Below, one piece after another: positions 45,238-62,246 of a stretch of 64,000 nucleotides of DNA; the stretch's first letter is position 1, and each line of letters opens with the position of its first letter. Source of the stretch: Candidatus Multivoradales bacterium (lineage in GTDB: Bacteria > Acidobacteriota > Thermoanaerobaculia > Multivoradales > J023); the NCBI GenBank assembly GCA_965248925.1, contig CBDFLE010000006.1, forward strand, positions 1,856,001-1,920,000, written 5' to 3'. The notes beneath the pieces were generated by a model. It was not told the DNA's origin and searched no databases. It worked only from the letters and a program-made list of their open reading frames with translations. A program made the translations under genes and the position numbers.

Positions 45238-46443
45238 ATGGCGAGCTTCGTCTGGAAGGGCCGAACCACAGCCGGCAAGATCGAACAAGGTGTGTTGGTG
45301 GCGGACTCCCGCGACTCCGCCGGCGCCATCTTGCGCCGCCAACGTATCCAGGTCACCAGCTTGCGCGAGAAAGAGCGCCGCATCCCACTGTTGCCGAAGT
45401 TTGGCGGCAGCGTCAACTCTAAGTCCCTGGCGATCTTCACCCGTCAGTTCTCGGTCATGCTGGATGCCGGCCTGCCGCTGGTCCAATGCCTGGAGATCCT
45501 CGGCGCGCAAGAAGAGGACAAGCGCTTCAAGGAGATCATCAACTCGGTCCGCACGGACGTCGAGAGTGGCACCTCCCTGGCCGAAGCGATGAAGCGCCAT
45601 CCCGCAGCGTTCGATAACCTCTACGTCAACATGATCGCCGCTGGCGAAGCTGGCGGTATCCTCGACATCATCCTGCAACGCCTGTCGACCTACATCGAGA
45701 AGTCGGTGAAGCTCAAAGGACAGGTGAAAGCCGCTTTGATTTACCCGGTAACGGTCATCGTCATCGCCGCCGGAGTGGTGTTCATCATCTTGTGGAAAGT
45801 CATCCCGACCTTCGAACAACTGTTCGCCGGCCTCGGTGCGCGGCTGCCCTACCTGACCCGCGTGGTGGTGGCGGCCAGTGAATTCGTCGGCTCCTATGCG
45901 GTTTGGATAATCCTCTTTATCGTGCTGTCCTCGGTCGCTCTGAGCCAATGGCACAAGACCTACCGTGGGCGGCGAATGATCGACGCCGCTTCGCTGCGCA
46001 TTCCGATTATCGGCATGCTGCTGCGCAAGATCGCCATCGCCCGCTTTTGCCGCACCTTGGCGACCTTGACCTCGAGCGGCGTGCCGATTCTCGATGGCTT
46101 GGAGATTACCGCCAGGACCTCGGGCAATGCGGTGATCGAAGACTCGGTGATGAGTGTCCGCAAGAGCGTCGAAGAAGGCAAGACGATCAGTGGACCCCTT
46201 GGAGAAACCAAGGTCTTCCCGCCGATGGTGGTGCAGATGATCGGCGTCGGCGAGCAGACTGGTGCCCTCGATCAAATGCTGTCCAAGATCGCTGATTTCT
46301 ACGAAGAAGAGGTCGACACCGCGGTCGCCGGCTTGATGAAACTGATTGAACCGTTAATGATCGTCTTCCTCGGTGTCGTCATCGGTGTCATCGTCACCGC
46401 CATGTACCTGCCGATGTACTCATTGATCTCGCAGATCGGCTAG
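45238..46443 (+). CDS. pilC: Type IV pilus platform protein (GspF family)
   Basis: FTRQFSVMLDAGLPL, AGEAGG, GEQTGALD, AMYLPM. Confidence 0.96.
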   Translation: MASFVWKGRTTAGKIEQGVLVADSRDSAGAILRRQRIQVTSLREKERRIPLLPKFGGSVNSKSLAIFTRQFSVMLDAGLPLVQCLEILGAQEEDKRFKEIINSVRTDVESGTSLAEAMKRHPAAFDNLYVNMIAAGEAGGILDIILQRLSTYIEKSVKLKGQVKAALIYPVTVIVIAAGVVFIILWKVIPTFEQLFAGLGARLPYLTRVVVAASEFVGSYAVWIILFIVLSSVALSQWHKTYRGRRMIDAASLRIPIIGMLLRKIAIARFCRTLATLTSSGVPILDGLEITARTSGNAVIEDSVMSVRKSVEEGKTISGPLGETKVFPPMVVQMIGVGEQTGALDQMLSKIADFYEEEVDTAVAGLMKLIEPLMIVFLGVVIGVIVTAMYLPMYSLISQIG

Positions 46444-46489
46444 CAAATACGACCGGCGCGCTCCGTCCGGCGCCGGTCTAGGAGCCTCC

Positions 46490-48283
46490 TTGCCAGAGCT
46501 CGACAAGAAGCTCCGCCTGCTGATTGCCTACCGCGTGCTGGTAGTGCTCAGCATTGCTCTACCCTACTTTCTTTACCAAGCCAGCATCTTTCCTTCACGC
46601 GCCGCCAAAGCCACCGCCCATGCCGCGGGCGTGGTCCGGAGCGAGGGACCGGAGCAAGCTGGCGCCGCCGCCGAACAGCCGCTCGAAGGACCGCCAGAGA
46701 GGACCGCGGCCAGCGGTTTCTATGGCGCTATGGCGCTCGACACTCGACAAGGGCAAGCCCTGCGCTTCGTCATTGCTCTTGTGTCGATTCAAACCCTGCT
46801 TTACATTGCCATATCGCGCCTGATGCCAGCCCGGCACGCCTTGCAGGCCTACCTCCAGTTTTTTGGCGATTTATTGCTGATTACCCTATTGATTCCCCGC
46901 CTTGGCGATCCCGCGGGTAGCTTCTCGATCCTCTATCTGGTGACCATCAGTGTTGCGGCGGTGATCCTGCGCCGCTCGGCGGCGCTGTTCGTCGCTGGCG
47001 GCGCCATGCTGATGTTCAGCGCCATGCTGATTCTATTGGCGAGCCCCTTCGCGGACGCGCTGCCGATCCACTTGGCCGGTTTCTACGGCCCCTTCGAGAT
47101 GCTGAGCAAAGTCGAGCTGAGCAAGACACTACTGACCCATTTTGGCGGTTTCTTCGGCGTCGCCGTGCTGACTTCCTACCTGGCCCAAAACGTCGCCCGA
47201 GCCGAGGAACAGCTGCATGAAAAACACCTTCGCTTAGAAGCTCTACAACGCCTCCACCGCGACATCGTACAGTCGGTCTCGAGCGGCTTGATCACCACTG
47301 ATCTGAGCGGACGCATCACCAGCCTGAACCGCTCTGGTGGCGAGATCCTAGGCACCATAGAGAGTGAAGTACTAGGCCAGCCAATCACCTCCACCGGCCT
47401 GTTCGACAGCGCTCTCTGGCACCGCCTGACCCACACCGAGCAAGCGAATCAACGCACCGAGGTCGAACTAAACCGCGATGGCGAAACCACTTACGTCGGC
47501 TACCATCTGAACCACTTGCGCGACCCCGAGGGTGCCGGGCGGGGCTTTAGCTTGATATTCCAGGACTTGTCGCAACACCGCAAGATGCAAGAAAGACTGC
47601 GGATCAGCGACCGAATGGCGGCAGTCGGCGAGATGGCGGCCGGCCTAGCCCATGAGGTGGGCAATCCGCTGGCGGCGATCTCGGGCTCGGTGCAGATGAT
47701 GGCCGCTTCAGAGGACACGGACCCAGCCCGTCGCAAACTGCTCGAAATCACCCTCAGAGAGAGCCAGCGGCTGGACCGCACGGTTAAGCAGTTCCTCAAG
47801 TTCGCCACCCCGCGCGAACGCCACCCAACCCGCTTCGACATCGCCAGGCTGCTGGTTGAAGAGATTGCCTTGCTCAGCAACAGTGACGAGATTGACGAGC
47901 GGCACCGTATCGATGCCGTCATGAATCCGCGCAGCGCCATGGTAACCGCCGACCCGGACCAGATCAGTCAGATTTTCTGGAACCTGGCCCGCAACGCGCT
48001 CAAGGCAATGCCCGACGGCGGCACTCTGACGGTGAGTGGGCGCCTGCAAGAGGACCTTTACCAGATCGAGTTCAGCGACACCGGCAGCGGAATGACACCC
48101 GAAGAGCGCACCAATCTGTTCCACCCCTTCAAGTCGTTTTTCGATGTAGGCTCGGGCATCGGCATGGCTATTGTTTACCGGATCGTCGAAGAACACGGCG
48201 GCGCCATTCATATTGACAGTGAGCCCGGCAGGGGTTCCGTCATCCGTGTCGATCTGCCGGCCAGAACGAGTCCCAAGACCTGA
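46490..48283 (+). CDS. pilS: PilS-like sensor histidine kinase with PAS domain
   Basis: TM domain, PAS, LAHEVGNPL, NLARNA, DTGSG, GSGIGM; located between pilC and pilR. Confidence 0.88.
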   Translation: MPELDKKLRLLIAYRVLVVLSIALPYFLYQASIFPSRAAKATAHAAGVVRSEGPEQAGAAAEQPLEGPPERTAASGFYGAMALDTRQGQALRFVIALVSIQTLLYIAISRLMPARHALQAYLQFFGDLLLITLLIPRLGDPAGSFSILYLVTISVAAVILRRSAALFVAGGAMLMFSAMLILLASPFADALPIHLAGFYGPFEMLSKVELSKTLLTHFGGFFGVAVLTSYLAQNVARAEEQLHEKHLRLEALQRLHRDIVQSVSSGLITTDLSGRITSLNRSGGEILGTIESEVLGQPITSTGLFDSALWHRLTHTEQANQRTEVELNRDGETTYVGYHLNHLRDPEGAGRGFSLIFQDLSQHRKMQERLRISDRMAAVGEMAAGLAHEVGNPLAAISGSVQMMAASEDTDPARRKLLEITLRESQRLDRTVKQFLKFATPRERHPTRFDIARLLVEEIALLSNSDEIDERHRIDAVMNPRSAMVTADPDQISQIFWNLARNALKAMPDGGTLTVSGRLQEDLYQIEFSDTGSGMTPEERTNLFHPFKSFFDVGSGIGMAIVYRIVEEHGGAIHIDSEPGRGSVIRVDLPARTSPKT

Positions 48284-48301
48284 AATGAAGAGGTAAAGGC
48301 G

Positions 48302-49720
48302 TTGAAAGCTCGGATCCTGATTGTTGACGACGAGGCCAGTCTCCTCGAATTTCTGCACCTGCTGTTCGAGGAGGAGGGCTACAGCGTATGCCCTGCAGGC
48401 TCGGTCAAGCAGGCACGCCAGCGCATCACCGAAGATAACTTCGATCTGGTGCTCTGCGACATCTTGATGCCAGACGGCAATGGCCTCGAATTGCTGCGCG
48501 AAATCAAGGAAGTATCACCCTCGACAGCGGTGATCATGATGACCGCCTACACCTCCACCAAATCAGCGATCGAGGCGATGAAACTCGGCGCCTACAACTA
48601 TCTGTCGAAACCGTTCGATGTCGAAGAACTCAAGGTTGTTGCCCAGCAAGCGCTGGAGAAGACCGGCCTCGAAGCCGAGAACGTCTACTTGCGGCGCGAA
48701 CTCGAGCAGCGGTATCAGTTCTCCAACATCATTGGCCGCAGCCCGAAGATGCAGGAGATCTTCTCGCTCATCGAGCGGGTCGCGAAGACCCACTCGACGG
48801 TCTTGGTGGGCGGTGAGTCGGGCACCGGTAAGGAGCTGATCGCCCGCGCCATTCACTTCTCCGGACCACGGGCCAACGACCGTTTCCTGTCGATCAACTG
48901 CGGCGCACTGCCCGAAAACCTGCTCGAATCAGAGCTATTCGGGCACGAGAAGGGCGCTTTCACCGGCGCCGTACGAGAGAAGAAGGGTCTGTTTCAAGAG
49001 GCCCATCAAGGAACCCTATTCCTCGACGAAATCGGCGAGATGTCGCCGTCGATGCAGGTGAAACTGCTGCGAGTACTGCAAGAGAAAAAGATCCGGCGGG
49101 TCGGCGGCAACGAGGAAGAGGCGATCGATGTGCGGATCATCGCCGCCACCAACCGCGATCTTGAAGAACGTATCGCCGAAGGCAATTTCCGCGAAGACTT
49201 GTTCTACCGCATCAACGTCATCCCCATTCGGCTGCCACCCCTGCGCCAGCGACGCGAGGACATTCCGTTGTTGGCGGAATTCTTCATCGACAAATACTCG
49301 CGCGAACTCGGCTTGGCAACGAGACCGATCTCGATGGCTGCTCTCCAGGTGCTGGAGGGTTACGACTGGCCCGGCAACGTGCGTGAACTCGAGAATACTG
49401 TTGAACGCGCACTGGCCCTATCGACCTCCGAAACCCTGACCACCAAAGACCTGCCGATCAACATCCTGTCGAAGAATCAGCGCCCCGCAGAGGCTCTGGA
49501 GTTGCCCGAAGAGGGCCTCGACCTCGAATGCTATCTCGACAACATTCGTGGCCAGTTGATGGGCCTGGCCTTGGATCGTTGTGGCGGCGTGCAGACCCAG
49601 GCTGCCCAGCTCTTGGGAATGACCTTTCGTTCCTTTCGCTACTACGCAAAGAAACTTGGTCTGACCGGCGTCGCTGCCGACTCCGGCAGTGAAATAGAGT
49701 ATCCCGCACCAGCCAAGTGA
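48302..49720 (+). CDS. pilR: PilR-like sigma54-dependent response regulator
   Basis: Receiver domain, GESGTGKE, GAFTGA, WPGNVREL, LLGMTFRSFRY. Confidence 0.92.
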   Translation: MKARILIVDDEASLLEFLHLLFEEEGYSVCPAGSVKQARQRITEDNFDLVLCDILMPDGNGLELLREIKEVSPSTAVIMMTAYTSTKSAIEAMKLGAYNYLSKPFDVEELKVVAQQALEKTGLEAENVYLRRELEQRYQFSNIIGRSPKMQEIFSLIERVAKTHSTVLVGGESGTGKELIARAIHFSGPRANDRFLSINCGALPENLLESELFGHEKGAFTGAVREKKGLFQEAHQGTLFLDEIGEMSPSMQVKLLRVLQEKKIRRVGGNEEEAIDVRIIAATNRDLEERIAEGNFREDLFYRINVIPIRLPPLRQRREDIPLLAEFFIDKYSRELGLATRPISMAALQVLEGYDWPGNVRELENTVERALALSTSETLTTKDLPINILSKNQRPAEALELPEEGLDLECYLDNIRGQLMGLALDRCGGVQTQAAQLLGMTFRSFRYYAKKLGLTGVAADSGSEIEYPAPAK

Positions 49721-49814
49721 AGCTCATCGCCGCGCGAACCGGCGCGGCACGGGGGCCGTCAGCGCGCCTTTCTTGCTCGTAGCAGTCGCTGCTGGCAAAT
49801 TGCGGATGGCGTGA

Positions 49815-49849
49815 TGTTGTAGGGCAGCAATTCGCGCCTAGTCTAGTAG
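49815..49849 (+). promoter_or_regulatory. Conserved motif TGTTG-N15-CGCCTA-N3-TAGTAG, copy A; candidate ECF promoter
   Basis: The same three boxes with the same spacing recur at 54271-54305 upstream of the paralogous gene. Confidence 0.7.
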
Positions 49850-49982
49850 CAGCATTTGAGCCATCTCTGAGACAATCTACCCCTGAGACCTAGAGCAGTG
49901 ACCACCGCTCCGCACCCGGCAAAGAACCGGGGCGGCGCCGCAATGGCGCAGCTGGAGAGTCTCTTCGCAAAGGAGGAAGACC

Positions 49983-51482
49983 ATGCCTTACCTGTCTCTC
50001 GCTACTAGTTCGCCGTCAAGCTGCCATCGATCAGCTGCCGTGATTGGAGCCCTTCTGCTGACCTTGACTCTCGGCCCGGCCCACCTCGGCGCTCAACCTT
50101 ACCTCGCCGAGATCCTCGAAGCCCAGGCCCTCGACAACGACCTCGAGGTTTGGCTGGTGTGGCTCTCGGGCGCCGTGCAGGACGGCAGCGAGTTGGTCGC
50201 TCGCCACGAAGACGGAAGCAAGATCCTCGCCGTACCTATCACCACGATCCCCATTCAACAGGACGGGAACGAAAGCCCTGGCACCCCGTTGGCCCGCACC
50301 ACCACCAGCAAGCCCGTGTTGGCACCCAGCAAGCAAACCCCCGACTTGATCACCGAACCTCAAGCCGTGCCCTATGTACTGCCCAACCTGCTAGGGCTGA
50401 CCCTCCAGACGCATCTGGATCTGACGGTCGAGGACGGTCAGGGCAACAGACTGAGCCCAGTCTTGCCGATCATTGTCGGCCTGGTAACCGGTCCCAATGG
50501 CTGTGACAAGGAGGTACAATCCGGCATCGACACCAACGCCGTGTTAATCAGCCAAGCGCTGAGCGAGGTGCTCGACACCTACCCTTACTACGATCTACTG
50601 CAGGACCTACAAGAGATCGAGAGTAGCTACCCGGAACTTAGCTGCGACATCGAGAATTTGCAGACCTACCTGCTGCGCCTTCTCTCCCAGATGGGCAAGC
50701 TGGATCCCAGCGCCGACGGCAAACTGGCTTGCACCTACTTTTGGCAAGCCATGCTGAGCGGCAACCTCGAAAATCGGCCGATTTATCGCGGTCCCTACAG
50801 GCCCTCTCCAGATTTCGTGCACGACATCATGCCGGGCTTCGCCGAGGTCGGCGGCTACGAAGCCAGGTCACCACACTGCGTCACAGCTCGGGCACAGGGC
50901 AGGGAAGACAGCCCGAACGGCGGTGCGGAGATCTTCTATGAAAGCGAGTCGGCCGACCTGCAGCTGAACGTTCATTTCGCCACTCGCCGCTGGACCGGTA
51001 GCCAGGACATCTGCGGTACTTGCGCTGGATCGGTGCTCTACGGCGCCGCCTATTCGGCCTCGACCCTCGCCCTGTTGGATCAGACCTTCGGCACGGGCAC
51101 CGCCTCCGCCAGCACCACACAGACGGTCACTTTCTTGACTGACGCCAACCTGGTTTCGAGCGTGACCGTCGCCGCCGAAGTGAGTTCCACCCCACCTTTG
51201 GGTGATTTCGACTACGAACTGTCCACCAAGGCTACTCGCGCGCCGGCGGTCTCCCAACCCGCCCAAGGCACCCTCACCGTGACCGCCACCTCCAGCTCCA
51301 GCTCTACAACCCTCGCCACGGCCGAGTACCGACTCGACTACTTCTGGCTGATCAAGGCCGAGGCCAGCTGCGCGGCCTTGCCGGTGGTGGACATGACAAT
51401 GAAATCGGTGCCGCTCGAGTACCACGGGGCCATCGACCCCGCCGGCGGTGGTACCCGGATCAAGCTACAACGCTATCCCTAG
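49983..51482 (+). CDS. Secreted Cys-containing protein of unknown family, paralogue A
   Basis: AAGGAGG RBS, signal peptide ending AHLGA, collinear similarity to 54367..55776. Confidence 0.85.
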   Translation: MPYLSLATSSPSSCHRSAAVIGALLLTLTLGPAHLGAQPYLAEILEAQALDNDLEVWLVWLSGAVQDGSELVARHEDGSKILAVPITTIPIQQDGNESPGTPLARTTTSKPVLAPSKQTPDLITEPQAVPYVLPNLLGLTLQTHLDLTVEDGQGNRLSPVLPIIVGLVTGPNGCDKEVQSGIDTNAVLISQALSEVLDTYPYYDLLQDLQEIESSYPELSCDIENLQTYLLRLLSQMGKLDPSADGKLACTYFWQAMLSGNLENRPIYRGPYRPSPDFVHDIMPGFAEVGGYEARSPHCVTARAQGREDSPNGGAEIFYESESADLQLNVHFATRRWTGSQDICGTCAGSVLYGAAYSASTLALLDQTFGTGTASASTTQTVTFLTDANLVSSVTVAAEVSSTPPLGDFDYELSTKATRAPAVSQPAQGTLTVTATSSSSSTTLATAEYRLDYFWLIKAEASCAALPVVDMTMKSVPLEYHGAIDPAGGGTRIKLQRYP

Positions 51483-54113
51483 GCTGCTTCCTGCTGCCAG
51501 CCAGCGGCGATAGGGAGCGGCGGCCAACGGTTCGCCGCTCCCCTCGTAGAGTTCCGCCAGGCCTTCGGCCAGCAGCCGCTGAGCTGGCGAGATCTGCCGT
51601 GTCGACGGCTCCGAATCCACCTCCAGATCGGCAGCGATTTCCCGCAAACCCCCGCGCAGCAGAGCCGCTGCCGGCTCGGACTTGCCCGAACCGATCAGAC
51701 AATGGGCTAGCGCTCCCAGCGCCTCAGCGATGGCCAGTGGGCCAGCACCCGCGGCACGGCGTAAATTGACTGCTTCGCGCAGCAGACCCTCGCCGCCTTC
51801 GAACTCCTGGCGACCGGCCTCGAAACGACCAAAATCGAGCAAAAATCGGCCGGCCCAGAATTCTGGTAGCCGGTTTTGGCGATGCCAGGCGAGCACCCGC
51901 TCATAGAGGACCGAGGCGGCCCGGTCTTGATGCAGTGCCGCCAAGGCGTTGGCCAGGCTGTGACTGGTGCCGATGGTGTCTCGATGCTCAGCCCCCAAGA
52001 CCTTCCGCTAGATTCCCAAGGCCCGCTCCAGGATCTCGGAGGCTTCGTCGTAACGACCACTGTCGACCAACAACGAACCGAGGTTGTGCCAGGCGGCAGC
52101 AATGTCCGGGTGAAACTCGGAGAGCGTCTCTTGCTTCAGCGTCAGCAGTTCGCGATACAACTTCTCGGCTTCGCCGAGGCGCCCCTGGTCGTGGACGATC
52201 ACCGCCAGATTGTTGAGCGTCGTCACCGTATCGATGTCCTCGTCGCCGAGTTGTGAACGCTGGATGGCCAACGCTTCGCGGGTCTGGGACTCCGCCAGAT
52301 CAAGGTCGCTTGAGCGGACGATGGCCGCCAAACTGCAAAGGTTGCGGGCGGTTTTCGGGTGATTTGGACCCAGTACTCGGCGACGGATGTCCAAGGATCG
52401 TTGCAGTAGGCGCCGAGCCTCCTCCTCATGACCGAACTCGTGGTGCAAGGCGCCATAGGCATTCAAGGCATCAGCGGTTTGGCGAGATCGCTCGCCATAG
52501 AGCTCTCGCGCCATCTCGAGAGCTCTTTCAGCTAGTGGCATGGCTGCTTCATAGGCTCCCATGCCACGGTAGATCCCCTGCAACGTCGACAATAGCTGGA
52601 GTTGCACTCTAGGCTTTCCTCCGAGCTCCAGATCGAGTCGGGCGACACCGCGCTCGAGCATCTCAACCGGCCCCAAAGGCTCGCCGCCGACCTCGTGCGG
52701 ATCGGCCGATTCAAACACCGATTGCAGGTAGGCCACCGCCGCCTGCGCCTGGTCGCGTTCTCTGGCCAAGCGCACAGTGAAAAAAGTCAACTGACCCGCC
52801 AGCAACAGACTCAGCACACCAGCCACCACCAGCCCGGTGCGATGGCGACGGAGGTACTTCTGCAACCTGTACGCCATCGTCGCCCGCCGTGCCCGCACCG
52901 GCAACCCTTGGCAGTGACGGCGGATGTCGGCGGAGAGTTGCTCGACGGAGCCGTAGCGCCGCTCCGGCTCCTTGCGCATCGCTTCGAGCACGATGTTGTC
53001 CAGGTCACCAGTTAGACGGCGTCGCAAAAGCCGCGGTTCGAGCGGCGGCCGAGCCATTCGCGAGGAATCGAAGTCGCTGCTGGCGCGAGCGATCTCGGTA
53101 CTCTCTTCAGGCAGGCCGATGACCGTGCTGGGACGTTCAGGCTCGGTCTCGCAGATCGCCCGCTCGAGCTCTCGCGGATGGTCGCTATTCAGCCGGTAAG
53201 GCAGCTGCCCGGTGAGCATCAGGAAGAGCAGCACTCCCAAGGAGTACACATCGCTAGTAGTGGTCAGGGGTAGGCCCAAGACTTGCTCCGGGCTGGCATA
53301 GCGCGGGCTCAGCAGCCGCATCCCTGGAGCGGTGCGAATCAGGCTCTCGACACCGGGCTCGGGACGCACCTCCTTGGCGATACCAAAGTCGAGCAGCTTG
53401 GGAACCCCCTCCCGGGTGACCAGGATGTTCGACGGCTTCAGATCACGATGTATGATCAGATTCTGGTGGGCGTAGTGCACCGCCGAGCAAACCAGCCGAA
53501 AGAGATCCAAACGGGCGACCACGCTCAGCCCATGGCGATCACAGAAGCGGTCAATCGGCAGACCGTCGATATACTCCATGACAAAGAAGGGCAGACCTTC
53601 CGCGGTGGTGCCGCCATCGAGCAAGCGAGAAATATTGGGATGGTCCAAGGAGGCCAAGATCTGCCGTTCCTGGCGCAGGCGGTTGAGGATGTCCTCGGTG
53701 TCCATGCCGCGACGAACCACCTTGATCGCCACCTGCATGCGAAACTGATCGTCATCGCGCTCACCCAGATAGACGGTCGACAGCCCACCACGGCCCAGTT
53801 CACGCAACACCCGGTAGGAGCCGATCTTCTTCGGCACCTCGGAGCCAAGTTCATCCGCGGCCAGTGCCAAGGTGTGGCGAATAACGTCTTCAAACCGCCC
53901 CTCGGCCTTGTCGCTCGCCTCGAGCAAGCCTTTGGTGCGGCGGTGCAGATCCACATCGTCACCACATTGCTGGGCGAGAAACCGTGGCCGTTCAGCGGCC
54001 GGCAGCTCGATGGCGGCATAGAAGAGGTCTTGCATCTGCTGCCAACGTTCTGGTGCCAGATGTGTTCTCGGCCTCTCGCCTCCCGGCTCTTTCGACTCTC
54101 CGTCCCTGCTCAC
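51465..54113 (-). pseudogene. Ser/Thr kinase-TM-TPR protein B interrupted by one in-frame TAG at 52010-52008 (nonsense allele, sequence error or read-through)
   Basis: ORFs 52008..54113 and 51465..51998 share a frame (ALGI*RKVLGAEHRDTIG), and both parts align to the intact paralogue 55786..58317. Kinase motifs VAIK, HRDLKPSN, DFG and YASPEQ are intact. Confidence 0.8.
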
Positions 54114-54270
54114 GGTCTGACCTCCAGACTCTGCTGTGACGATCCCTGACGGCGGGTTTACCGTCCGGCAATCTTCTCATCCGTTGCCCCACAAACCACC
54201 ACTCCGCACAAAGCAAAGGGAAAAATGCGGCAGTTGAACACCAGTTCGCTACTCGCCAAAAATCGACTGG

Positions 54271-54305
54271 TGTTGCCGCACCGATCCTTACGCCTACCTT
54301 AGTAG
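54271..54305 (+). promoter_or_regulatory. Conserved motif TGTTG-N15-CGCCTA-N3-TAGTAG, copy B; candidate ECF promoter
   Basis: tgttg ccgcaccgatcctta cgccta cct tagtag; matches 49815-49849. Confidence 0.7.
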
Positions 54306-54366
54306 TGCAATAAATCAGAAGCCGAGCTGAGGGCAGGCTAGACCTTGATCACAAAGGAGAGAACGC

Positions 54367-55776
54367 ATGCAAGACCAGAAACTGCAATATCGAGGACCCC
54401 ATACCATCCTCCACTCCACCCCCTTACTGCTCTGCGGGCTGATCCTTGGCCTCCAGGTCGCCTGGCCGGCGGCAGCACTGCTACCACCCTCGGCGGCGGT
54501 CGAGATCGTCCGCGCCGTCGAGGCGCAAGCGGGCAGCAAGGACCTCCTCGCCGATCTGCTGTGGCGCCAGGACCCCGGAGTGCCTCTCTATCTGACAGCC
54601 AGAGAACTCGACGGCACGCCGATCAGCTCGACCCTCGTCGAGCCGACGAATAAGACCAGAGGCAAGGCTAAGCCTGGGAGTTCCGGCACCGTACCGGCGG
54701 GGACGCCGATCACCGAGACTCTGACAGCAGTGATTGGCGACATCGCCACCACCGGCATCCACATCCGCCTGACGGTGGAGACCGCGACGGGCGAGGTCTT
54801 CAGCAACCGCTACTCCTTCGTCATCGAGTGGGTGCCCACCTCCCAGGGTTGCGAAGGCCAGGTTTTCGGCCGTGCCGAGACGACAGCCGTTTGGATGGGC
54901 TACGAGCTCGACCTCCTTCTCGACGGAGCGACCTACAGCCACTTGGGAACCTACCTAGCGACTCTGCTGCTAGATGACAACCTAAATCCGGTGATCCGAT
55001 GCCAGACCATCTCCTTGCAGACCGAACTCGCCCGCCTCGATGACGACAGCGAAACGACTAGCTGCGAGCATTTCTGGCAAGTCGTGGTTCTCGGCCAGCG
55101 AGCTGTCAATGAGTTCTACAACGGCCCCTTTCCAGACGGGCGGCCCCGATACGAGGAGGCGCCGGTTGGCTTTGTAGAGCTACTTGTCACGGAGAAAAAC
55201 GCTGATCACTGCATCGACACGCTGGCGGTCGGCGATGGCGCCCAGGGTGGTGTCAAGTTCAAGGTGGCTCGGGTGACCGACGAGGCCCTCACCACCGAGT
55301 TCTCGGTGCGACGCTGGTTCGGCCCTGCGGCTTCCTGCAGCTGTGCAGGCGACATCGCGCAGTCAGCCCAGCTGACTGGCCTCATCTCGGCGCAAGCCAC
55401 CAACATCGGCCTTGGCTCGGCAGGCGCTTGGGCAGGGGAAGATCTCTACTTCACCCTCGATGACCAGCTGATGCTCTTCGCACGGCGGACGGCGCTAGTG
55501 CAACCCGGCCCCTTGGCGGAAGCTGCCGACTTTGTCGACTTCACCCGCGAGGTGGTCACCGAGAACGCAGCCGCGCCCCAGACCGGTTCGCTCCGCGCTG
55601 TCGGCGGGGTGGTGACCGAGGCCACTGGCGACTCCTTCGCTCGCGCTGACTACCGCAGCACCTACGTCTGGCAGCAGGACGCCACTTCGAACTGCACCGT
55701 GCTCGACAACGTCTCATTGATCCTATCGCCGGGTGTGGACATCGCAACCCGAATCAAGCTTGAGCCCTACCCCTGA
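54367..55776 (+). CDS. Secreted Cys-containing protein of unknown family, paralogue B
   Basis: AAGGAG RBS, signal peptide ending WPAAA, shared motifs CxxFWQ, RRWxG and TRIKLxxYP. Confidence 0.85.
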   Translation: MQDQKLQYRGPHTILHSTPLLLCGLILGLQVAWPAAALLPPSAAVEIVRAVEAQAGSKDLLADLLWRQDPGVPLYLTARELDGTPISSTLVEPTNKTRGKAKPGSSGTVPAGTPITETLTAVIGDIATTGIHIRLTVETATGEVFSNRYSFVIEWVPTSQGCEGQVFGRAETTAVWMGYELDLLLDGATYSHLGTYLATLLLDDNLNPVIRCQTISLQTELARLDDDSETTSCEHFWQVVVLGQRAVNEFYNGPFPDGRPRYEEAPVGFVELLVTEKNADHCIDTLAVGDGAQGGVKFKVARVTDEALTTEFSVRRWFGPAASCSCAGDIAQSAQLTGLISAQATNIGLGSAGAWAGEDLYFTLDDQLMLFARRTALVQPGPLAEAADFVDFTREVVTENAAAPQTGSLRAVGGVVTEATGDSFARADYRSTYVWQQDATSNCTVLDNVSLILSPGVDIATRIKLEPYP

Positions 55777-55785
55777 TCAACCGAC

Positions 55786-58317
55786 TCAGTGCGAGTCGTC
55801 GCAGGGCGCAGCCAGCGCCGCGGCAACTCGCTGGGTCCTTGGAGCAGTGCTACCGAGGTGGTGCCGTAGCACTGGCAAGCTGGCTTCGAGAGAGCGGCGG
55901 GCTTCCTCAGCGTCGCCTTGCCAACAGCGAGCTTGACCCAAGGCCGCATCGGCAAGCGCCTGCTCGAGGGAGCCTTCCATGCCCGCCGCGGCGAGCAGTG
56001 CCACCGCTTCCTCGAGCAGCTCGACCGCCTCCTTGAGAGTGCCCTTGGCGGTGAGGAAACCGCCAAAGTCGGTCAACAATCCAGCCGTCCAGGAGGCTGG
56101 TGGCCGGTGGGCTCGATGCCAGCCGAGAACGAGGCGATATAGCTCCTCGGCCCGCTGCTGTTGTCCCAACGCCTGGCACACCTTGGCCAAGGTGTGGCTG
56201 GTGCCGATGGTCTTCTGGTGCTGGCGCCCATAGAGACGGCTCTTGAGTTCCAACGCGGCCAGCAGATGGGTGCGCGCTTCCTCGTGCTTACCCCGCTCCG
56301 CCAACAGCCGGCCGAGGTTTTGATAGGCCACCGCCACGTCCGGATGATCCTGGTCAAAGACTTCGACTTTGACCCGCAGACCCTTGCGCAGCAGCTTTTC
56401 CGCTTGGTCGAGCTTGCCTTGCTCTTGCAGGATGATGCCGAGGTTGTTCTCAGAAGTGACGGTGTCGGGATGAGTCGGACCGAGCAATTCGGTCTGTCTC
56501 AAAAAAGCATCTCGCACTAACCTTTCGGCCTCCCCAAGCTCACCCACGGAAAACAAGATGGCCCCCAGATTCGACAGTGCCAAGACGAAGCTCCGCGGCG
56601 CCGCCGCCGCATGACGCTGCAAAATCGGCAACGCTTCTTCGAAAATGTCTCGGGCCGCCTCGCTATCTCCCTGGCGCGCTAAGACCAGAGCAACCTGAAC
56701 CCGAGCGTTGGCCACCTCGAGACTATTCTCTGCGAAACGCTTCCGCTGTAGGCTCAAGGCCGCTCGCCAGACCCTCTCGGCTTCTTCCAGAGCGACAATA
56801 TTGAAATAGATGTCGCCGCTGACCGTGAGCAGCTGCACCTGTATGTCGGGCTGATCGGCGAGTTCGTCAATACCCTCGATGCCACGGTCGAGAATCTGGC
56901 GAGCGCTCAGCTGCTCGCCACGGGCTTGCTCCGGGTCGGCATGCTTGAAAATGCCCACCAGGAAATCGACCACCGCCGTTTTCTGTCGCGCTACTTTTTG
57001 CGCCTGGTCGCGCTCGGCGGCCAGGCGGGCGGTGAAAAACACCACCAAGCTGGTGACCACCGCCACCAGGGTGGCCACTGCCGTTACCCCCGCGCTATGC
57101 CGGCGAGTGAATTTTTGCAGCCGATACCCGACGGTGTCAGGACGTGCCAAGACCGGCAAACCCGAGAGATGGCGGCGCAGGTCTTCGGCGAGCTGCTCCA
57201 CCGAACCGTAGCGACGGTCGGTCTCCTTGCGCAGGGAAGTCAGGATTATGTTGTCGAGATCGCCACTCAGCTGGCGGCGGAGTTTGGCCGGCGACGACGC
57301 GGCAGTGGGAATTGCCGGCTGCGGCCCCTCCGCCTCGCCAGGACTCTCCCCCGTGGTCCCGTCGACCGTCGCGCTGGGACGCCGCGGCTCTACCTCGCAG
57401 ATCAGACGTTCCAATTGACTTGGGTCACGGGTGGTCAAGTCATAGGGCAAGCGGCCGGTGAGCAGTTGGTAAAGCAGCACGCCGAGGGAGTAAACATCGG
57501 TTGCGGTAGTCAGAGGCAAGCCGCGAATTTGCTCCGGGCTGGCGTAGCGCGGAGTCAGCATCCGCAAGCCTGGCGCGGTGGGGTCCAGGGGCTCATTACT
57601 GGCCTCGGCCCGTAGAACCTTGGCGATGCCGAAATCGAGCAGCTTGGGGGTGCCGTTGGCGGTTACCAAGATGTTCGACGGCTTGAGATCACGATGAATG
57701 ACCAAGCTGCGATGGGCAAAGTCCACCGCCGAACACACCTGCGCGAAGAGTTCCAGACGGCGGCGCACGGGCAGTCTTCGGCGATCGCAGAAACTATCGA
57801 TCGGCTCGCCCTCGATGTACTCCATAACGAAATAGGGCAAGCCCTCCTCGGTGGTACCACCATCGAACAAGCGGGCGATATTGGGGTGGTCGAGGCTGGC
57901 CAGAATCTGACGCTCCTGACGCAGGCGGCGCAGGATGTCGTCGGTGTCCATCCCTTGGCGCACCACCTTGATTGCCACTCGCATGTGGAAGTGCTGATCG
58001 GCCCGTTCAGCCAGGTAGACCGTCGACAAGCCACCGTGCCCAAGCTCGCTCAGCACCCGGTAGGGGCCGATTTCCTTCAGTCCTTGGCTGCCAACTTCAT
58101 CGGCGGCCAATGCTAAAGTGTGGCGAATGACGCTCTCGAAACGACCTTCGGCTTTGTCGTTCGCCCGCAGTAGGTCAAGGGCCCTCTGCCGCAAGTCCGC
58201 ATCGCCGCTACATTGCTGATCGATAAAAGCCGGTCGCGCCGACGCTTCGAGTTCCAAAGCAGCGTAAAACAGCTCTTGCAGTCTCTGCCAACGCTCGGCA
58301 TCGAGATCGCCAGCCAC
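55786..58317 (-). CDS. Ser/Thr kinase-TM-TPR protein A
   Basis: RWQRLQELFYAALEL N-terminal extension, LGHGGLSTVY, VAIK, HRDLKPSN, DFG, YASPEQ, one TM, HPDT/HPDV-type TPRs. Confidence 0.93.
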   Translation of the reverse strand: MAGDLDAERWQRLQELFYAALELEASARPAFIDQQCSGDADLRQRALDLLRANDKAEGRFESVIRHTLALAADEVGSQGLKEIGPYRVLSELGHGGLSTVYLAERADQHFHMRVAIKVVRQGMDTDDILRRLRQERQILASLDHPNIARLFDGGTTEEGLPYFVMEYIEGEPIDSFCDRRRLPVRRRLELFAQVCSAVDFAHRSLVIHRDLKPSNILVTANGTPKLLDFGIAKVLRAEASNEPLDPTAPGLRMLTPRYASPEQIRGLPLTTATDVYSLGVLLYQLLTGRLPYDLTTRDPSQLERLICEVEPRRPSATVDGTTGESPGEAEGPQPAIPTAASSPAKLRRQLSGDLDNIILTSLRKETDRRYGSVEQLAEDLRRHLSGLPVLARPDTVGYRLQKFTRRHSAGVTAVATLVAVVTSLVVFFTARLAAERDQAQKVARQKTAVVDFLVGIFKHADPEQARGEQLSARQILDRGIEGIDELADQPDIQVQLLTVSGDIYFNIVALEEAERVWRAALSLQRKRFAENSLEVANARVQVALVLARQGDSEAARDIFEEALPILQRHAAAAPRSFVLALSNLGAILFSVGELGEAERLVRDAFLRQTELLGPTHPDTVTSENNLGIILQEQGKLDQAEKLLRKGLRVKVEVFDQDHPDVAVAYQNLGRLLAERGKHEEARTHLLAALELKSRLYGRQHQKTIGTSHTLAKVCQALGQQQRAEELYRLVLGWHRAHRPPASWTAGLLTDFGGFLTAKGTLKEAVELLEEAVALLAAAGMEGSLEQALADAALGQARCWQGDAEEARRSLEASLPVLRHHLGSTAPRTQRVAAALAAPCDDSH

Positions 58318-58320
58318 TGC

Positions 58321-58902
58321 TCAGGGGCTCGCCGCCATCGATTCGTTGTCGATCTCCTGATAGAGCCAGGCCTTGGCCATCTTCAGCTCGCGATCAACAG
58401 TGGACCGTGACAGCTCAAGCACCGCGGCGGTCTCCTGGATGGTCAAGCCGCCGAAGTAGCGCAGCTCGACGATCTTGCTCTTACGCTGATCGAACGAATC
58501 CAAGTCTTTGAGCGCGTCGTCCAACGCCACCAGATACCAGGCCGGCTGGGCCGCTATATGCGCATCGTCGAGTGGCAGGTCGGTGATCCCGCCACCCCGC
58601 TTGGCGGCCTTTCGACGGCGCGCGAAGTCGGTCAAGATACGCCGCATCATGCTCGCCGCGACAGCGAAGAAATGATTGCGATCTTGCCAGCCTAGTTTGA
58701 GATCGATCAGCCGTATATAGGCTTCGTGGATCAGAGCAGTGGTTTGCAGCGTGTGCAGCGGCCGCTCACCCTTCATGTAGTGGTGGGCCAGTCGGCGCAG
58801 CTCTTGGTAGACGATCGGCGTCAGTTGGTCGAGAGCTTGCCGATCGCCCGCCCGCCACTCGATCAACAGCTGGGTGATTCCTTGTAACCCCCGCTCCGTC
58901 AT
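58321..58902 (-). CDS. ECF sigma factor, TIGR02999/ECF43-like kinase-activated type
   Basis: ITQLLIEWRAGD, VYQELRRLA, HTLQTTALIHEAYIRL, MRRILTDFAR, ELRYFGGLT; ends 3 nt upstream of the kinase start. Confidence 0.93.
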   Translation of the reverse strand: MTERGLQGITQLLIEWRAGDRQALDQLTPIVYQELRRLAHHYMKGERPLHTLQTTALIHEAYIRLIDLKLGWQDRNHFFAVAASMMRRILTDFARRRKAAKRGGGITDLPLDDAHIAAQPAWYLVALDDALKDLDSFDQRKSKIVELRYFGGLTIQETAAVLELSRSTVDRELKMAKAWLYQEIDNESMAASP

Positions 58903-60224
58903 CGCCAGTTCCCTCGCCCTGGCCTGATTCGCAGCCAGGTCACTCTATCGCCCCAGTGATCGATGAAGGCCACCCAGGCGACCCACACAGTCGGTACCAG
59001 ATGGAAGTAGAGTCGCGCCGCGCTGGTGCGGATCCACTGCCGCGGATCGTGCGAGCCGGCCATGTAGACGAAGACGTAGAAACCAAGCTGAAAGGCAACC
59101 AGCGCCACCATCGGCCGTAAACGCCGATCGACCGCCAACAGAGGCAAGGTGAGCAAGACCAGACTCAAATAGTGCCAGTTGAGAGTCAGCAGACTGTGTC
59201 CAAGCTCCGCCAGCACGACCGCGGCCTTACTCCAGGCGAAACCACCGACATTGGCGCGCTGAAACAAATCGTGACGCAGCACCTGCAACACCCACGGCAC
59301 GACCATCAGCGCCGCCGGCCACCCCAAAACCCCCAGGGTCGATAGCGGATGGCGGCCACGCTGACGATAGTGGCGCAATGCTTGGATGGCGATCATCGCC
59401 GCCGCTAACGCCACACCTTCGATCTTGCTCGCTGCCGCGAACGCAGCGGCTACCGCCAAGAGCCGGTCCGCCGAGCCACTGAGCGGACGGCTGAGCACGG
59501 CTGCCGCCAGCAATACCGCCAGCGTCAGCAGCCAGTCAGCGCCACCCGCCGAAAGGTAGCCGATACCGAACATGGCGCCCTGCAATGCAACCACCGCCAC
59601 CGCGACATTGCGCGCCCATCGGCCGAGTTTGAGCGAGCGGCTCAACGCCCGCGCCGCCACCACCGCCAAGGCAAAGAATAGGGTGGAGAAAGCCAGTGCC
59701 GGCGCCACTTCGAAACTGCCAACCACGACCGCCGGCAAAGCCATTAAGACAGGCAGAAAATTCGGATAATCAGCATGAACATGCCCGTTCCAAGGCAGCT
59801 GCAAAAACTCTAGATCCACCCCGCCAGCAAGCTGATATTTCTGCGCTTTGATGCCCCAGTGATAGATAAAATCAGGGTTGGTGTTCCACAAAAGATGGGT
59901 GGCACCGGCAAAAGCCAGGCCCGCCGCCAAGGCGAGCCCATCACCCCATTCCAGTCCCCTCGGCAGGGTCAGACGGCGTGGTATTTCGCTGACCAGGATG
60001 GCCAACCCGACCGCTATTGGCAGAGCCCAACTGAGCCGCGTCCACGGCAGTCGAAGAATCCCCAAGCCGGTCGACCACAGAAAGAGCCCCAGCAAGCCGG
60101 CCAACACACACTCCGCCAAGGCCAGGTCACCCACCAACGCTCGCCGCACTCCACCGAGCCGCCGCCAACCGATTCCCAAGCCCGTAGCCGCCAGCACGAC
60201 CAGCGCAAAAGCGAGGTAACCCAC
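58899..60224 (-). CDS. Polytopic membrane protein, putative GT-C-fold glycosyltransferase
   Basis: DFIYHWGIKA, HADYP and KIEG motifs, many TM helices. Confidence 0.6.
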   Translation of the reverse strand: MGYLAFALVVLAATGLGIGWRRLGGVRRALVGDLALAECVLAGLLGLFLWSTGLGILRLPWTRLSWALPIAVGLAILVSEIPRRLTLPRGLEWGDGLALAAGLAFAGATHLLWNTNPDFIYHWGIKAQKYQLAGGVDLEFLQLPWNGHVHADYPNFLPVLMALPAVVVGSFEVAPALAFSTLFFALAVVAARALSRSLKLGRWARNVAVAVVALQGAMFGIGYLSAGGADWLLTLAVLLAAAVLSRPLSGSADRLLAVAAAFAAASKIEGVALAAAMIAIQALRHYRQRGRHPLSTLGVLGWPAALMVVPWVLQVLRHDLFQRANVGGFAWSKAAVVLAELGHSLLTLNWHYLSLVLLTLPLLAVDRRLRPMVALVAFQLGFYVFVYMAGSHDPRQWIRTSAARLYFHLVPTVWVAWVAFIDHWGDRVTWLRIRPGRGNWR

Positions 60225-60227
60225 GGC

Positions 60228-60665
60228 TCAGTCCTCTAGCGGCCGGATGCGGTAGAGGGTGCCTTCGAAAGACTCGTAGAGCACTTCCAGGGTGGGATTG
60301 GACAACCGAGTGCCATAGGCGATCCAGAAATCCGCCTGCACTCCATAAGCCGAGGTCGACGCCGTGCGCACCTGCTGCTTGGGCAGCAGGAAAGCACACC
60401 AGAGATAGCGGAAGAAACGCTCGCGATCGGGACCCGGGTCCGACGAAAAAGCCACCACGCTACCCGCTGGCAAGCGCGCTTCGAGCCGTCGCAGGAAACC
60501 CCCGAGGCGCTCGACATGAGCACTGCCCAAACGCCAGGTCGAGGGGGCCTCCGCGGTCCAGGGATCCGCCGTCGCCAGCCACCAGCTCGAGTACAGCTCG
60601 CGGGAGGCTCCCCAAGCGCACCACAGCAGCAGAGCTGCCAGCAGCAGATCAGCCCGGCGCTTCAC
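60228..60665 (-). CDS. Hypothetical protein with N-terminal signal/anchor
   Basis: AGGAG RBS, GTG start, hydrophobic N-terminus, 3-nt gap to the next gene. Confidence 0.65.
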   Translation of the reverse strand: MKRRADLLLAALLLWCAWGASRELYSSWWLATADPWTAEAPSTWRLGSAHVERLGGFLRRLEARLPAGSVVAFSSDPGPDRERFFRYLWCAFLLPKQQVRTASTSAYGVQADFWIAYGTRLSNPTLEVLYESFEGTLYRIRPLED

Positions 60666-60839
60666 CAGTCACTCCTGACCCGTGGCCCGCGGCCAGCCAG
60701 AGTGGAGGCTCTAGCGGCCCGCTGCAAATCACAAATTGGAATCATCGCCGTGAGCTTACCTCACGGCCGGCCGGCAAGGCACTGAGCCAGCCCCCAACGC
60801 CCAGCGCACGTGGGCTGCGATAGAGTGTGCCGACCACCG

Positions 60840-62246
60840 ATGTACCGCTTCTTCCTCACTTCCCTCGGCCTACCTTTCACCGGACCTTTCGCCGTGTTTT
60901 TCGCCATAGCTTTGTCCTTGCTACTGGCCAGTTGCTCAGCACCACTGCCGCCAACCGTGATTTGCCAGGACTGCAACGTCATCCTGATTCTGGCCGACAC
61001 CCTGCGCGCCGATCATCTCGGAGTTTACGGCTACCCACGGCCCACCAGTCCGCGATTGGACCAGCGAGCACAGTCAGCAGTACGCTTCAGCTGGGCTCGC
61101 AGCCAGGCCTCCTGCACCTTCCCATCGATGAACTCGCTGCTGACCTCGCGCCACACCTTCGAGTTCATGGACGCCACTACGCGACCCACCATCCCCTCCT
61201 CGGTACCCACCTTGCCGACCTTGCTGCGCGATCACGGATTCTCGACGGCGGCGGTCTCGGCCAGCCCGATTGTCCGCCGCTCGCCGGGCCAGCACAATCC
61301 CAAAGGCGGCTTTGGCGGCGGCTTCAAAATTTTTGACGAAAGCTGTGAGTGGAAAGAGGCCAGCTGCGTCACTGAACGAGCCAGCAAGTTGCTCGACCAG
61401 CTGCCCGAGCCCTTCTTCCTCTACCTGCACTACATGGATCCGCACGACCCCTACCGCCCCGAGGACGAGCTGCGCGGTACCTTCTCACGGCCCCACCCAG
61501 ACGGCCCGTCCTACATCACCCGCGGCAACCCCAACCCGGTGCGGCAGTTGATTCGCGACAACCTGGTCGACCAACACCTCGACCCGGACGACTTCGCCCA
61601 CCTACTAGACCTTTACGACGAGGAGATATTGGGGCTCGACCGCGGGCTCGGCCAGCTCTTCGACCAGCTTGACCACCGTCAGCTGAGCCAGCGAACGTTA
61701 GTAATTCTGGCTTCCGACCACGGCGAGGGCTTCTACGAGCACGGCACGGTGAAACACTGCTACTCGGTCTACGATGTCGAAACGCGGGTTCCTCTTCTCT
61801 TCTGGATCCCCGGCATCGCAGGCCCGGTAGAACGCCGCGCGGCGGTACAGAATCTGGATATCTTGCCGACCGTGCTGGACTATCTAGGCTTACTCGACGA
61901 CCCGCTGCCAGAGATTGCCGGCCACAGCCTGCGACCGATCATCGAGTCGAGCGAGGGCGGTGGTGGCTTGGCCTACAGTGCCGCCGGTGCCTACCGCAGC
62001 GTCAACGACGAGCGCTACAAGCTGATCCTCGACCTAGCCGCCCAGTCCTATCAGCTCTTCGACTTGCTCGAAGATCCGCAAGAACTGCACGATCTGCTAC
62101 CCGAGCGGCGGCCGCAGTTCCACCGCCTGCGCCAAGAGCTGGAAAGCTGGAACCGCTCAGCGGAGGGCGGCGAGGCCCTGGAGCGGCGTCTCGATCGCGC
62201 CCGCGAAATCGAGCAAGAGCTGCGCGCCTTAGGTTATCTCGGGTAG
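60840..62246 (+). CDS. Sulfatase-like (alkaline phosphatase superfamily) exported protein, possibly a lipoprotein
   Basis: NVILILADTLRADHL, CTFPSMNSLLT, HYMDPHDPY, ASDHGE, LRALGYL; LASC lipobox-like motif. Start uncertain. Confidence 0.88.
   Translation: MYRFFLTSLGLPFTGPFAVFFAIALSLLLASCSAPLPPTVICQDCNVILILADTLRADHLGVYGYPRPTSPRLDQRAQSAVRFSWARSQASCTFPSMNSLLTSRHTFEFMDATTRPTIPSSVPTLPTLLRDHGFSTAAVSASPIVRRSPGQHNPKGGFGGGFKIFDESCEWKEASCVTERASKLLDQLPEPFFLYLHYMDPHDPYRPEDELRGTFSRPHPDGPSYITRGNPNPVRQLIRDNLVDQHLDPDDFAHLLDLYDEEILGLDRGLGQLFDQLDHRQLSQRTLVILASDHGEGFYEHGTVKHCYSVYDVETRVPLLFWIPGIAGPVERRAAVQNLDILPTVLDYLGLLDDPLPEIAGHSLRPIIESSEGGGGLAYSAAGAYRSVNDERYKLILDLAAQSYQLFDLLEDPQELHDLLPERRPQFHRLRQELESWNRSAEGGEALERRLDRAREIEQELRALGYLG

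Follow-up and report, generated by a model that had tools for sequence, protein, structure and literature searches.

Gene organization of the locus

We analyzed a 64,000-nt stretch of DNA from Candidatus Multivoradales bacterium (referred to here, at its full length, as the window), and within it a group of five genes encoding two predicted secreted proteins (secA and secB, members of what we call the SEC family), two membrane-spanning Hanks-type kinases with tetratricopeptide repeats (TPRs; kinases A and B), and one extracytoplasmic function (ECF) sigma factor (Table 1). Calling of open reading frames (ORFs) gave the order secA> <kinB secB> <kinA <ECF, which is the order that a preliminary description of this DNA had reported. 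The evidence presented below suggests that these genes make up one signaling unit, in which the kinases would activate the sigma factor and the sigma factor would transcribe the SEC genes, and that the part consisting of kinase and SEC gene has been duplicated in tandem. Nine nucleotides separate the end of the kinase A gene from the secB stop. We found no terminator-like hairpin between the convergent genes, and, as an idea, one could imagine antisense interference between SEC and kinase transcripts.

Table 1. Genes and sequence elements of the locus, in window coordinates
Feature	Position	Strand	Description
secA promoter-like site	49812..49840	+	-35 TGATGTT at 49812-49818, 16-nt spacer, -10 CGCCTA at 49835-49840, then gtc-TAGTAG
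Shared motif, copy 1	49901..49924	+	ACCACCGCTCCGCAC..GCAAAG; repeat family D16
secA	49983..51482	+	Predicted secreted SEC-family protein, 499 aa, 7 Cys in mature part
Kinase B	51465..54113	-	N-extension, Hanks kinase, one transmembrane segment, TPR ectodomain; in-frame TAG; without own ECF gene
Shared motif, copy 2	54195..54218	+	ACCACCACTCCGCAC..GCAAAG; between kinase B start and secB promoter
secB promoter-like site	54268..54296	+	-35 TGGTGTT at 54268-54274, 16-nt spacer, -10 CGCCTA at 54291-54296, then cct-TAGTAG
secB	54367..55776	+	Predicted secreted SEC-family protein, 469 aa; predicted Ig-like N-domain, helical linker, Bd1399-like elongated beta-sandwich
Kinase A	55786..58317	-	843 aa; N-extension, Hanks kinase, transmembrane segment ~410-428, TPR ectodomain
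ECF43-like sigma factor	58321..58902	-	193 aa, QTTA motif in region 2.2

The SEC family and its linkage to ECF and kinase genes

Both secreted proteins begin with a hydrophobic, signal-peptide-like N-terminus and have seven cysteines each in their mature parts, and at 27% identity (476 columns, E 3e-28) they are indeed the diverged paralogues that the preliminary description took them for. Five cysteines are universally conserved in the family, each being present in 40 to 42 of 42 proteins, and secA has all five. Neither secA nor secB matched a Pfam family, and none of 35 SEC members matched DUF4360 or another relevant Pfam family at E <= 1. An exhaustive search of 1.84 billion representative proteins with a SEC profile returned 42 clusters (E <= 0.001), almost all of them 440-540 amino acids (aa) long. 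Judged from searches of this kind, the family is small and confined to one bacterial order: in a sample of the phylum a SEC match occurred in a single genome out of 400 others, which belongs to the window's own order, and within that order matches were present in 31 of 299 other genomes, with 16/23 in the window's own family and up to six copies per genome. The window's own genome (8 Mb in six contigs) has three copies only by this profile, namely secA, secB, and a third on contig C5, where the cassette reads ECF (190 aa) > kinase-TPR (866 aa) > < SEC (473 aa) and therefore includes an ECF gene of its own. A homologue search with these three paralogues recovered only the proteins themselves and one metagenome relative with 76% identity to secA, a related-locus search with secB alone recovered no relative, and the ESM Atlas gave no usable match.

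To describe the fold, we used an AlphaFold2 model of secB built from the family alignment (predicted local distance difference test score, pLDDT, 86.7; predicted template modeling score, pTM, 0.83). The model consists of an immunoglobulin (Ig)-like sandwich (residues 44-161), three helices (~179-225), and a long beta-sandwich whose strands reach 36 residues. Matches to the Ig-like N-domain were generic (Z 6-7, VIA). The top structural match of the C-terminal domain was Bd1399 (8OKH), with a Foldseek E-value of 7e-6, a probability of 1.00, and a template modeling (TM) score of 0.37 on the target; VIA gave Z 6.7 for 8OKH over 146 aligned residues, where a Z below 8 is not decisive. When the C-terminal part was folded alone (pLDDT 75.8), 8OKH was again matched (VIA Z 6.6, 144/165 residues) and was the only chain with a Z of at least 5, the next chain having a Z of 4.6. 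Other Foldseek matches of the whole model had TM scores of 0.15 or less and were discarded. As modeled, the SEC fold says that this is a secreted, disulfide-stabilized protein of binding type, and no more. SEC is a structurally confident protein family that has no Pfam model.

The preliminary description had made the gene neighborhoods of SEC homologues the first check of its proposal, and on this point the proposal stands, as the linkage to ECF and kinase-TPR genes is strong. We examined 55 loci around SEC matches, which include 54 full-length SEC genes. A convergent kinase-TPR gene lies within 1 kb of 41 of these 54, with gaps of -73 to +700 nt and a median of ~10. Three more have a divergent ECF-kinase operon directly upstream, another three show other forms of linkage (L060, L078, and the second SEC gene of L098), and four are on contigs too short to judge, leaving three (L057, L065, and L091) without a link. 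An ECF gene is found upstream of the cassette kinase in 37 of 39 pairs, and in the other two the kinase is cut by the contig end; among the judgeable cassette kinases, kinase B is the only one without its own ECF (37/37 others have one). The linkage of SEC, ECF, and kinase is kept across 17 genera. We found no SEC gene beside 80 kinase-TPR loci of other phyla, searching 3-kb flanks.

Several of these loci have features of their own. In L065 (4711-10490), the SEC gene is downstream of a GAF-sigma54 activator and convergent on a VWA/Big_7 protein rather than on a kinase-TPR gene. L053 (8420-11512) has the ECF closest to that of the window (E 7e-85). In its cassette, separate ORFs of 425 aa and 402 aa encode the kinase part and the TPR part, which makes this the second broken kinase in the clade of the window's ECF. 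Small dockerin-like secreted proteins of 170-200 aa with a CCxLGD motif are encoded beside SEC in L060, L064, L068, and L082, and in three of these loci their genes follow the type of promoter described below for SEC genes.

The sigma factor and the two kinases

The sigma factor has the two-domain structure of sigma2 and sigma4 and is matched by PF07638 (Sigma70_ECF, E 1e-54, residues 7-185) and by Sigma70_r4_2. Its region 2.2 reads HTLQTTALIHEAY (HTLQTTAL), with LQTTAL at the place where other ECFs carry the acidic DAED, and the second Thr of this motif is conserved in 42/42 cassette ECFs. The preliminary description had pointed to a Thr in place of DAED in an ECF with a neighboring Hanks kinase, and both elements are in place, as the kinase A gene begins 3 nt downstream of the ECF gene. 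No anti-sigma Pfam domain was found in the genes neighboring the ECF, where the proteins encoded upstream (441 aa and 145 aa) have no assigned family. Co-occurrence with a Hanks kinase has been described as the hallmark of the ECF43 group, in which a QTTA consensus in region 2.2 replaces the acidic residues (PMC13147305, as far as covered here). The window's sigma factor fits an ECF43-like assignment because it combines QTTA in sigma2.2 with a directly downstream gene for a Hanks kinase with transmembrane segment and TPRs, as is the case for EcfK/PknS and EcfP/PknT.

A tblastn search identified 42 sigma factors of ECF43-like type in the window's own genome. For 28 of these, including the one of the locus, the next gene downstream encodes a kinase-TPR protein in the same orientation, so that the sigma-kinase pair as such is commonplace there. 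Downstream of nine of the 28 pairs, as judged with a crude signal-peptide rule (11 when judged by eye), there is a convergent gene whose product is a secreted protein from another family. Elsewhere in this genome (G000:C6:4149371-4152365), an ECF-like match interrupted by an in-frame TGA occurs in three identical copies at a spacing of 1259 nt, beside an intact ECF and kinase, which looks as if a broken sigma gene had been triplicated in tandem.

The two kinases are paralogues with 53% identity over 755 columns, and their TPR halves have diverged further than their kinase halves, both as anticipated in the preliminary description. The N-terminal extension (~80 aa, 64% identity) and the kinase domain (65%) are more alike than the TPR part (37%) and the tail (31%). 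Pfam identified Pkinase (1e-43 for A and 8e-41 for B), TPR_12 (2e-49 and 4e-36), and TPR_10 in both, and the catalytic motifs VAIK, HRDLKPSN, DFG, and SPE are present in both by alignment. By these features, both kinases look active and receptor-like. Each has a single strong hydrophobic segment between its kinase and TPR parts (410-428 in A, 429-447 in B), and the TPR part should therefore sit outside the cytoplasmic membrane.

Kinase B is interrupted by an in-frame TAG (52008-52010, codon 702), which the preliminary description had overlooked; kinase A has a Lys codon at the aligned position. The stop leaves 701 aa of kinase B and, behind it, an open tail of 177 aa that is still TPR-like; the truncated product retains the kinase, the transmembrane segment, and ~270 ectodomain residues, and the last ~180 ectodomain residues are lost. 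Three of four public sequencing runs each assemble a contig that spans 49700-59000 and is identical to the window, so the TAG is no slip of a single assembly; all four runs derive from one sample, probably the source of this assembly, and do not amount to independent biological confirmation. The kinase B gene has a single stop and no frameshift despite its divergence to 53% identity from kinase A. The kinase was evidently maintained under selection for a long time, and the stop is therefore either recent or tolerated.

A putative promoter shared by SEC genes

The regions upstream of SEC genes have a bipartite motif in common, TGAGGGA-N16-CGC(C), with TGAGGG occurring in 31 of 56 regions. Over the 55 loci (667 kb, both strands), the pattern TGAGG[GC][AG]-N15-17-CGC has 81 matches, 37 of them upstream of SEC genes, compared with 26 for a reversed control pattern. 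Many of the remaining matches precede other neighboring genes for secreted proteins, such as the dockerin-like ones, and two precede an ECF gene. A site with a spacer of exactly 16 nt is present in 31 of the 42 cassettes, with TGAGGG[AG] as the -35 element in 24 cassettes, TGATGGG in four, TGAGGCA in two, and TGGTGTT in one, that of secB.

A position weight matrix of the family motif (TGAGGGA-N16-CGC) found no site near secA or secB, as its best score in the window was 10.4 (at 18404) and the training minimum was 12.2. This failure led us to a clade variant, TGrTGTT. In its strict form, TGrTGTT-N16-CGCCTA, the variant has exactly two matches in the 8-Mb genome, and these lie upstream of secA and secB. 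The loose pattern TGrTGTT..CGCC has 69 matches genome-wide versus 20 for the control, mostly within genes, and the loose TGAGGG pattern is not enriched genome-wide (46 matches versus 45 for the control).

Clades that differ in the -35 variant also differ in the sigma4.2 helix of the neighboring ECF. This helix reads SHATVERD in most ECFs, SSATVERE in the TGAGGCA clade, GRATIERD in the TGATGGG clade, and SRS(T/S)VDRE in the window ECF and L053. A fixed short spacer and a CG-containing -10 element are typical of ECF promoters, and because the SEC sites have this form, we infer that the neighboring ECF transcribes both SEC genes. A sigma54 promoter upstream of secA, considered by eye, was rejected as its GG..GC spacing is wrong.

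The preliminary description had noted an upstream motif shared by the two secreted genes. Sharing was indeed observed, but it involves two different elements rather than one: the promoter-like site and a second motif, ACCACCnCTCCGCAC, which begins at 49901 and 54195 and has only these two sites in the genome (searched as a 15-mer pattern). The second motif lies downstream of the promoter at secA and upstream of it at secB, and is out of register with both promoter and start codon. Two other elements were observed in the same genome. A dispersed repeat containing ACCACCCCTCCGAAG occupies more than 20 sites (for example C5:291846 and C6:1767316), usually 115 nt upstream of a small ORF. At G000:C6:4314668-4318540, the gene downstream of another ECF-kinase pair is a secreted ORF of 300 aa in the same direction, which has TGAGGGG-N16-CGCA, a site of the SEC family's promoter type, at -49.

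Joint duplication of kinase and SEC genes

To gain insight into the history of the cassettes, we compared maximum-likelihood trees of 42 SEC proteins and their 42 kinases. The two trees have 30 of 39 splits in common. Among SEC splits with support of at least 95, 21/22 recur in the kinase tree, and 26/28 well-supported kinase splits recur in the SEC tree. In these trees secA and secB are sisters (Shimodaira-Hasegawa-like approximate likelihood ratio test, 94), as are kinases B and A (100). Because both pairs are sisters, we conclude that a tandem duplication copied kinase and SEC gene together as a unit of ~4.3 kb, a size that agrees with the repeat spacings of 4246-4294 nt at the locus. The earlier suggestion that each kinase was duplicated along with its secreted partner is thus well founded.

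Proposed mechanism

These observations can be assembled into a model of how the module may work. The starting point would be a membrane Hanks kinase whose catalytic domain is cytoplasmic and whose TPR domain lies beyond the membrane. By analogy with EcfP/PknT and EcfK/PknS, the kinase would phosphorylate the conserved region 2.2 Thr of the ECF43-type sigma factor, which would be inactive without this modification. Once active, as the promoter evidence suggests, the sigma factor would recognize a promoter dedicated to the SEC genes (-35 TGrTGTT, 16 nt, -10 CGCCTA), and the output would be SEC, a predicted secreted, disulfide-rich two-domain beta protein. At this locus a tandem duplication copied the unit of kinase and SEC gene but not the sigma gene, and kinase B gained its stop codon afterwards. 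Since the duplication left out the sigma gene, the two diverged kinases probably feed one sigma factor, which would drive both SEC genes. Related bacteria have retained the unit as a whole, and its role is therefore probably to turn on a secreted protein in response to a signal from outside. We assign the chain from kinase to sigma factor to SEC a probability of roughly 0.6. The preliminary description had proposed the same chain along with receptor-ligand pairing of kinases and secreted proteins; the chain is supported by the ECF43 features, the common ECF-type promoter, and the linkage, whereas for the pairing the support is indirect, from the covariation of SEC and TPR distances described below.

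There are several points that weigh against the proposed chain. Another of the 42 ECF43-like sigma factors of the genome could read the SEC promoters, and kinase B may be non-functional owing to its TAG. By the pattern used, 11 of the 42 cassettes have no site. L053 is among these 11, and no variant site was found upstream of its SEC gene, although its ECF is the only one besides that of the window to have this sigma4 variant. Within the window, we found no such promoter upstream of kinase B or of the ECF operon. The covariation of -35 element and sigma4 helix tracks phylogeny and would represent only 3-4 independent changes. The window variant itself comprises two sites, and ~1-2 strict matches are expected by chance in 16 Mb, so that the argument lies in where they are located.

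Alternative explanations

The alternative that we weigh most heavily, although we remain doubtful of it, is that SEC is not only a target of the sigma factor but also an extracytoplasmic partner (ligand or co-sensor) of the TPR domain of its own kinase, which would make the duplicated units cognate sensor pairs with feedback. It would account for the joint duplication and the matching trees, and for the much faster divergence of the TPR part than of the kinase part (37% versus 65% identity between kinases A and B). TPRs are protein-binding modules, and SEC and the TPR domain should share a compartment. Pairwise distances between SEC proteins also track those of the TPR ectodomain (r 0.674) better than those of the cytoplasmic part (r 0.483); the partial correlation of SEC with TPR given the kinase is 0.548, that of SEC with the kinase given TPR is 0.128, and in a partial Mantel test 0/2000 permutations reached the observed value. 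These correlations fit a specific SEC-TPR relationship, but may reflect two fast-evolving, partly saturated sequences (mean SEC distance, 2.6). SEC evolves at ~2x the rate of the kinases, with median end branches of 0.8 and 0.38, respectively. Furthermore, matching trees are expected of any tightly linked genes, and SEC may leave the periplasm altogether. Overall, we regard it as rather unlikely that SEC also acts on the TPR domain of the kinase. Somewhat less likely still is a more specific version, in which SEC docks on its own kinase's TPR ectodomain, confers ligand specificity, and is induced by the sigma factor, and would thereby be the missing input device of one subclass among the ECF43 receptor kinases. 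If this were true, the module would be a self-amplifying, kinase-based counterpart of cell-surface signaling, and duplicating kinase-SEC pairs under one sigma factor would add input channels to one output.

It is also conceivable, and in our view improbable, that the cassette of secA and kinase B is a decaying duplicate and that the working unit consists of the ECF, kinase A, and secB only. The TAG, which recurs in three assemblies of one sample, the exceptional absence of an ECF gene belonging to kinase B, and the lack of a detected promoter for this kinase would all be in line with decay. However, one lesion is all that has accumulated at 53% identity, the catalytic motifs are intact, and the truncated protein keeps its kinase, its transmembrane segment, and ~270 ectodomain residues. 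secA is also intact, with the five universal cysteines and the shared promoter, and its 76%-identical relative exists in a metagenome.

Very unlikely is the explanation that the SEC promoters are read by another sigma factor and that the adjacency of ECF and kinase reflects shared function or co-inheritance instead of direct control: 42 paralogous ECFs in the genome and the lack of an autoregulatory promoter copy upstream of the window's ECF operon (two such copies were found upstream of ECF genes in the 55 loci) would allow for it, but in this genome the promoter variant is found at the two SEC genes only, the -35 variant changes with the sigma4 helix of the neighboring ECF across clades, and the linkage of SEC, ECF, and kinase extends over 17 genera.

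Comparison with known systems

The sigma-kinase part of the proposed module resembles systems that have been studied in proteobacteria. Within the parts of the reports covered here, the transmembrane kinase PknS is described as having 833 aa, of which 83 form an N-terminal extension, and TPRs in the periplasm (PMC13147305), and EcfP as activated by phosphorylation of the second Thr of an STTA motif (PMC8999054). The sequence features of the window's ECF and kinases match those given for ECF43, PknS, and EcfP in these sources. Like EcfK/PknS of Xanthomonas citri (PMC13147305), the window system has a QTTA-type motif instead of the acidic DAED and, next to the sigma gene, a gene for a Hanks kinase of ~830-840 aa that has an N-extension of ~80 aa, one transmembrane segment, and predicted periplasmic TPRs. 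EcfK/PknS is without an anti-sigma factor, and at the window's ECF no neighbor has an anti-sigma Pfam domain. There are also differences from the system as described there: EcfK controls a type VI secretion system cluster, whereas the conserved neighbor here is a single gene, convergent to that of the kinase, for a secreted protein of a previously undescribed family, and the window has two kinases per one sigma factor and a much longer ectodomain (~400 aa of TPRs). With EcfP/PknT of Vibrio parahaemolyticus (PMC8999054), the likeness is in the proposed mechanism, in which the sigma factor would be inactive until the second Thr of xTTA is phosphorylated by the neighboring kinase. The EcfP regulon gives polymyxin resistance, and the covered part of PMC8999054 does not describe a secreted partner protein for EcfP/PknT.

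For the SEC proteins, the closest comparison is Bd1399 of Bdellovibrio bacteriovorus (PDB 8OKH), which the covered part of its report presents as a secreted, disulfide-locked, DUF4360-related protein of unknown function (PMC10792529). Bd1399 folds as an elongated beta-sandwich that two conserved disulfides lock. SEC is likewise predicted to be secreted and, by its model, to form an elongated beta-sandwich, and it has conserved cysteines. In contrast, there is no sequence similarity between the two (8-16% identity), SEC (~470 aa) has an Ig-like N-domain and a helical linker in addition, and Bd1399 has, in that source, no known link to a sigma-kinase module.

In the FecI/FecR/FecA system, the envelope protein that the ECF sigma factor induces takes part in sensing as well, and the sensing chain operates through an anti-sigma factor and a TonB-dependent receptor. 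Any likeness to the window would be one of logic only, as the window has a kinase and a predicted soluble beta protein. Experimental demonstration that sigma factors can be switched on by Ser/Thr kinases is itself only recent.

Neither a conserved secreted partner nor a SEC-type promoter came up in the covered parts of the ECF43 and EcfP/PknT literature, a coverage that does not extend to Iyer et al. 2020 and supplements. Within this scope, the sigma-kinase switch is known, while the conserved secreted third component, the family-wide promoter, and the arrangement of two kinases with one sigma factor are new. Beyond two proteobacterial cases, the same literature gives neither the signals sensed by the outer domains of such kinases nor their regulons. 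For one well-delimited subfamily, our work yields a defined promoter, a dedicated target gene, and a candidate periplasmic partner, and the two kinases and one sigma factor of the window are a natural arrangement for testing the convergence of inputs.

Neighboring genes

Directly upstream of secA (45238-49720) are a PilC-like gene, a histidine kinase gene, and a gene for an NtrC-type sigma54 activator, and we found no sign that they regulate secA. At the other end of the module (58899-60665), a gene for a 441-aa polytopic membrane protein is overlapped at its end by 4 nt of the ECF start and is itself preceded by a 145-aa gene. The two encoded proteins have no Pfam family and are conserved in 0/55 related loci, and they were not counted as parts of the module. 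Divergent to these two genes is a sulfatase gene (60810-62246), one of ~27 sulfatase-like ORFs in the genome.

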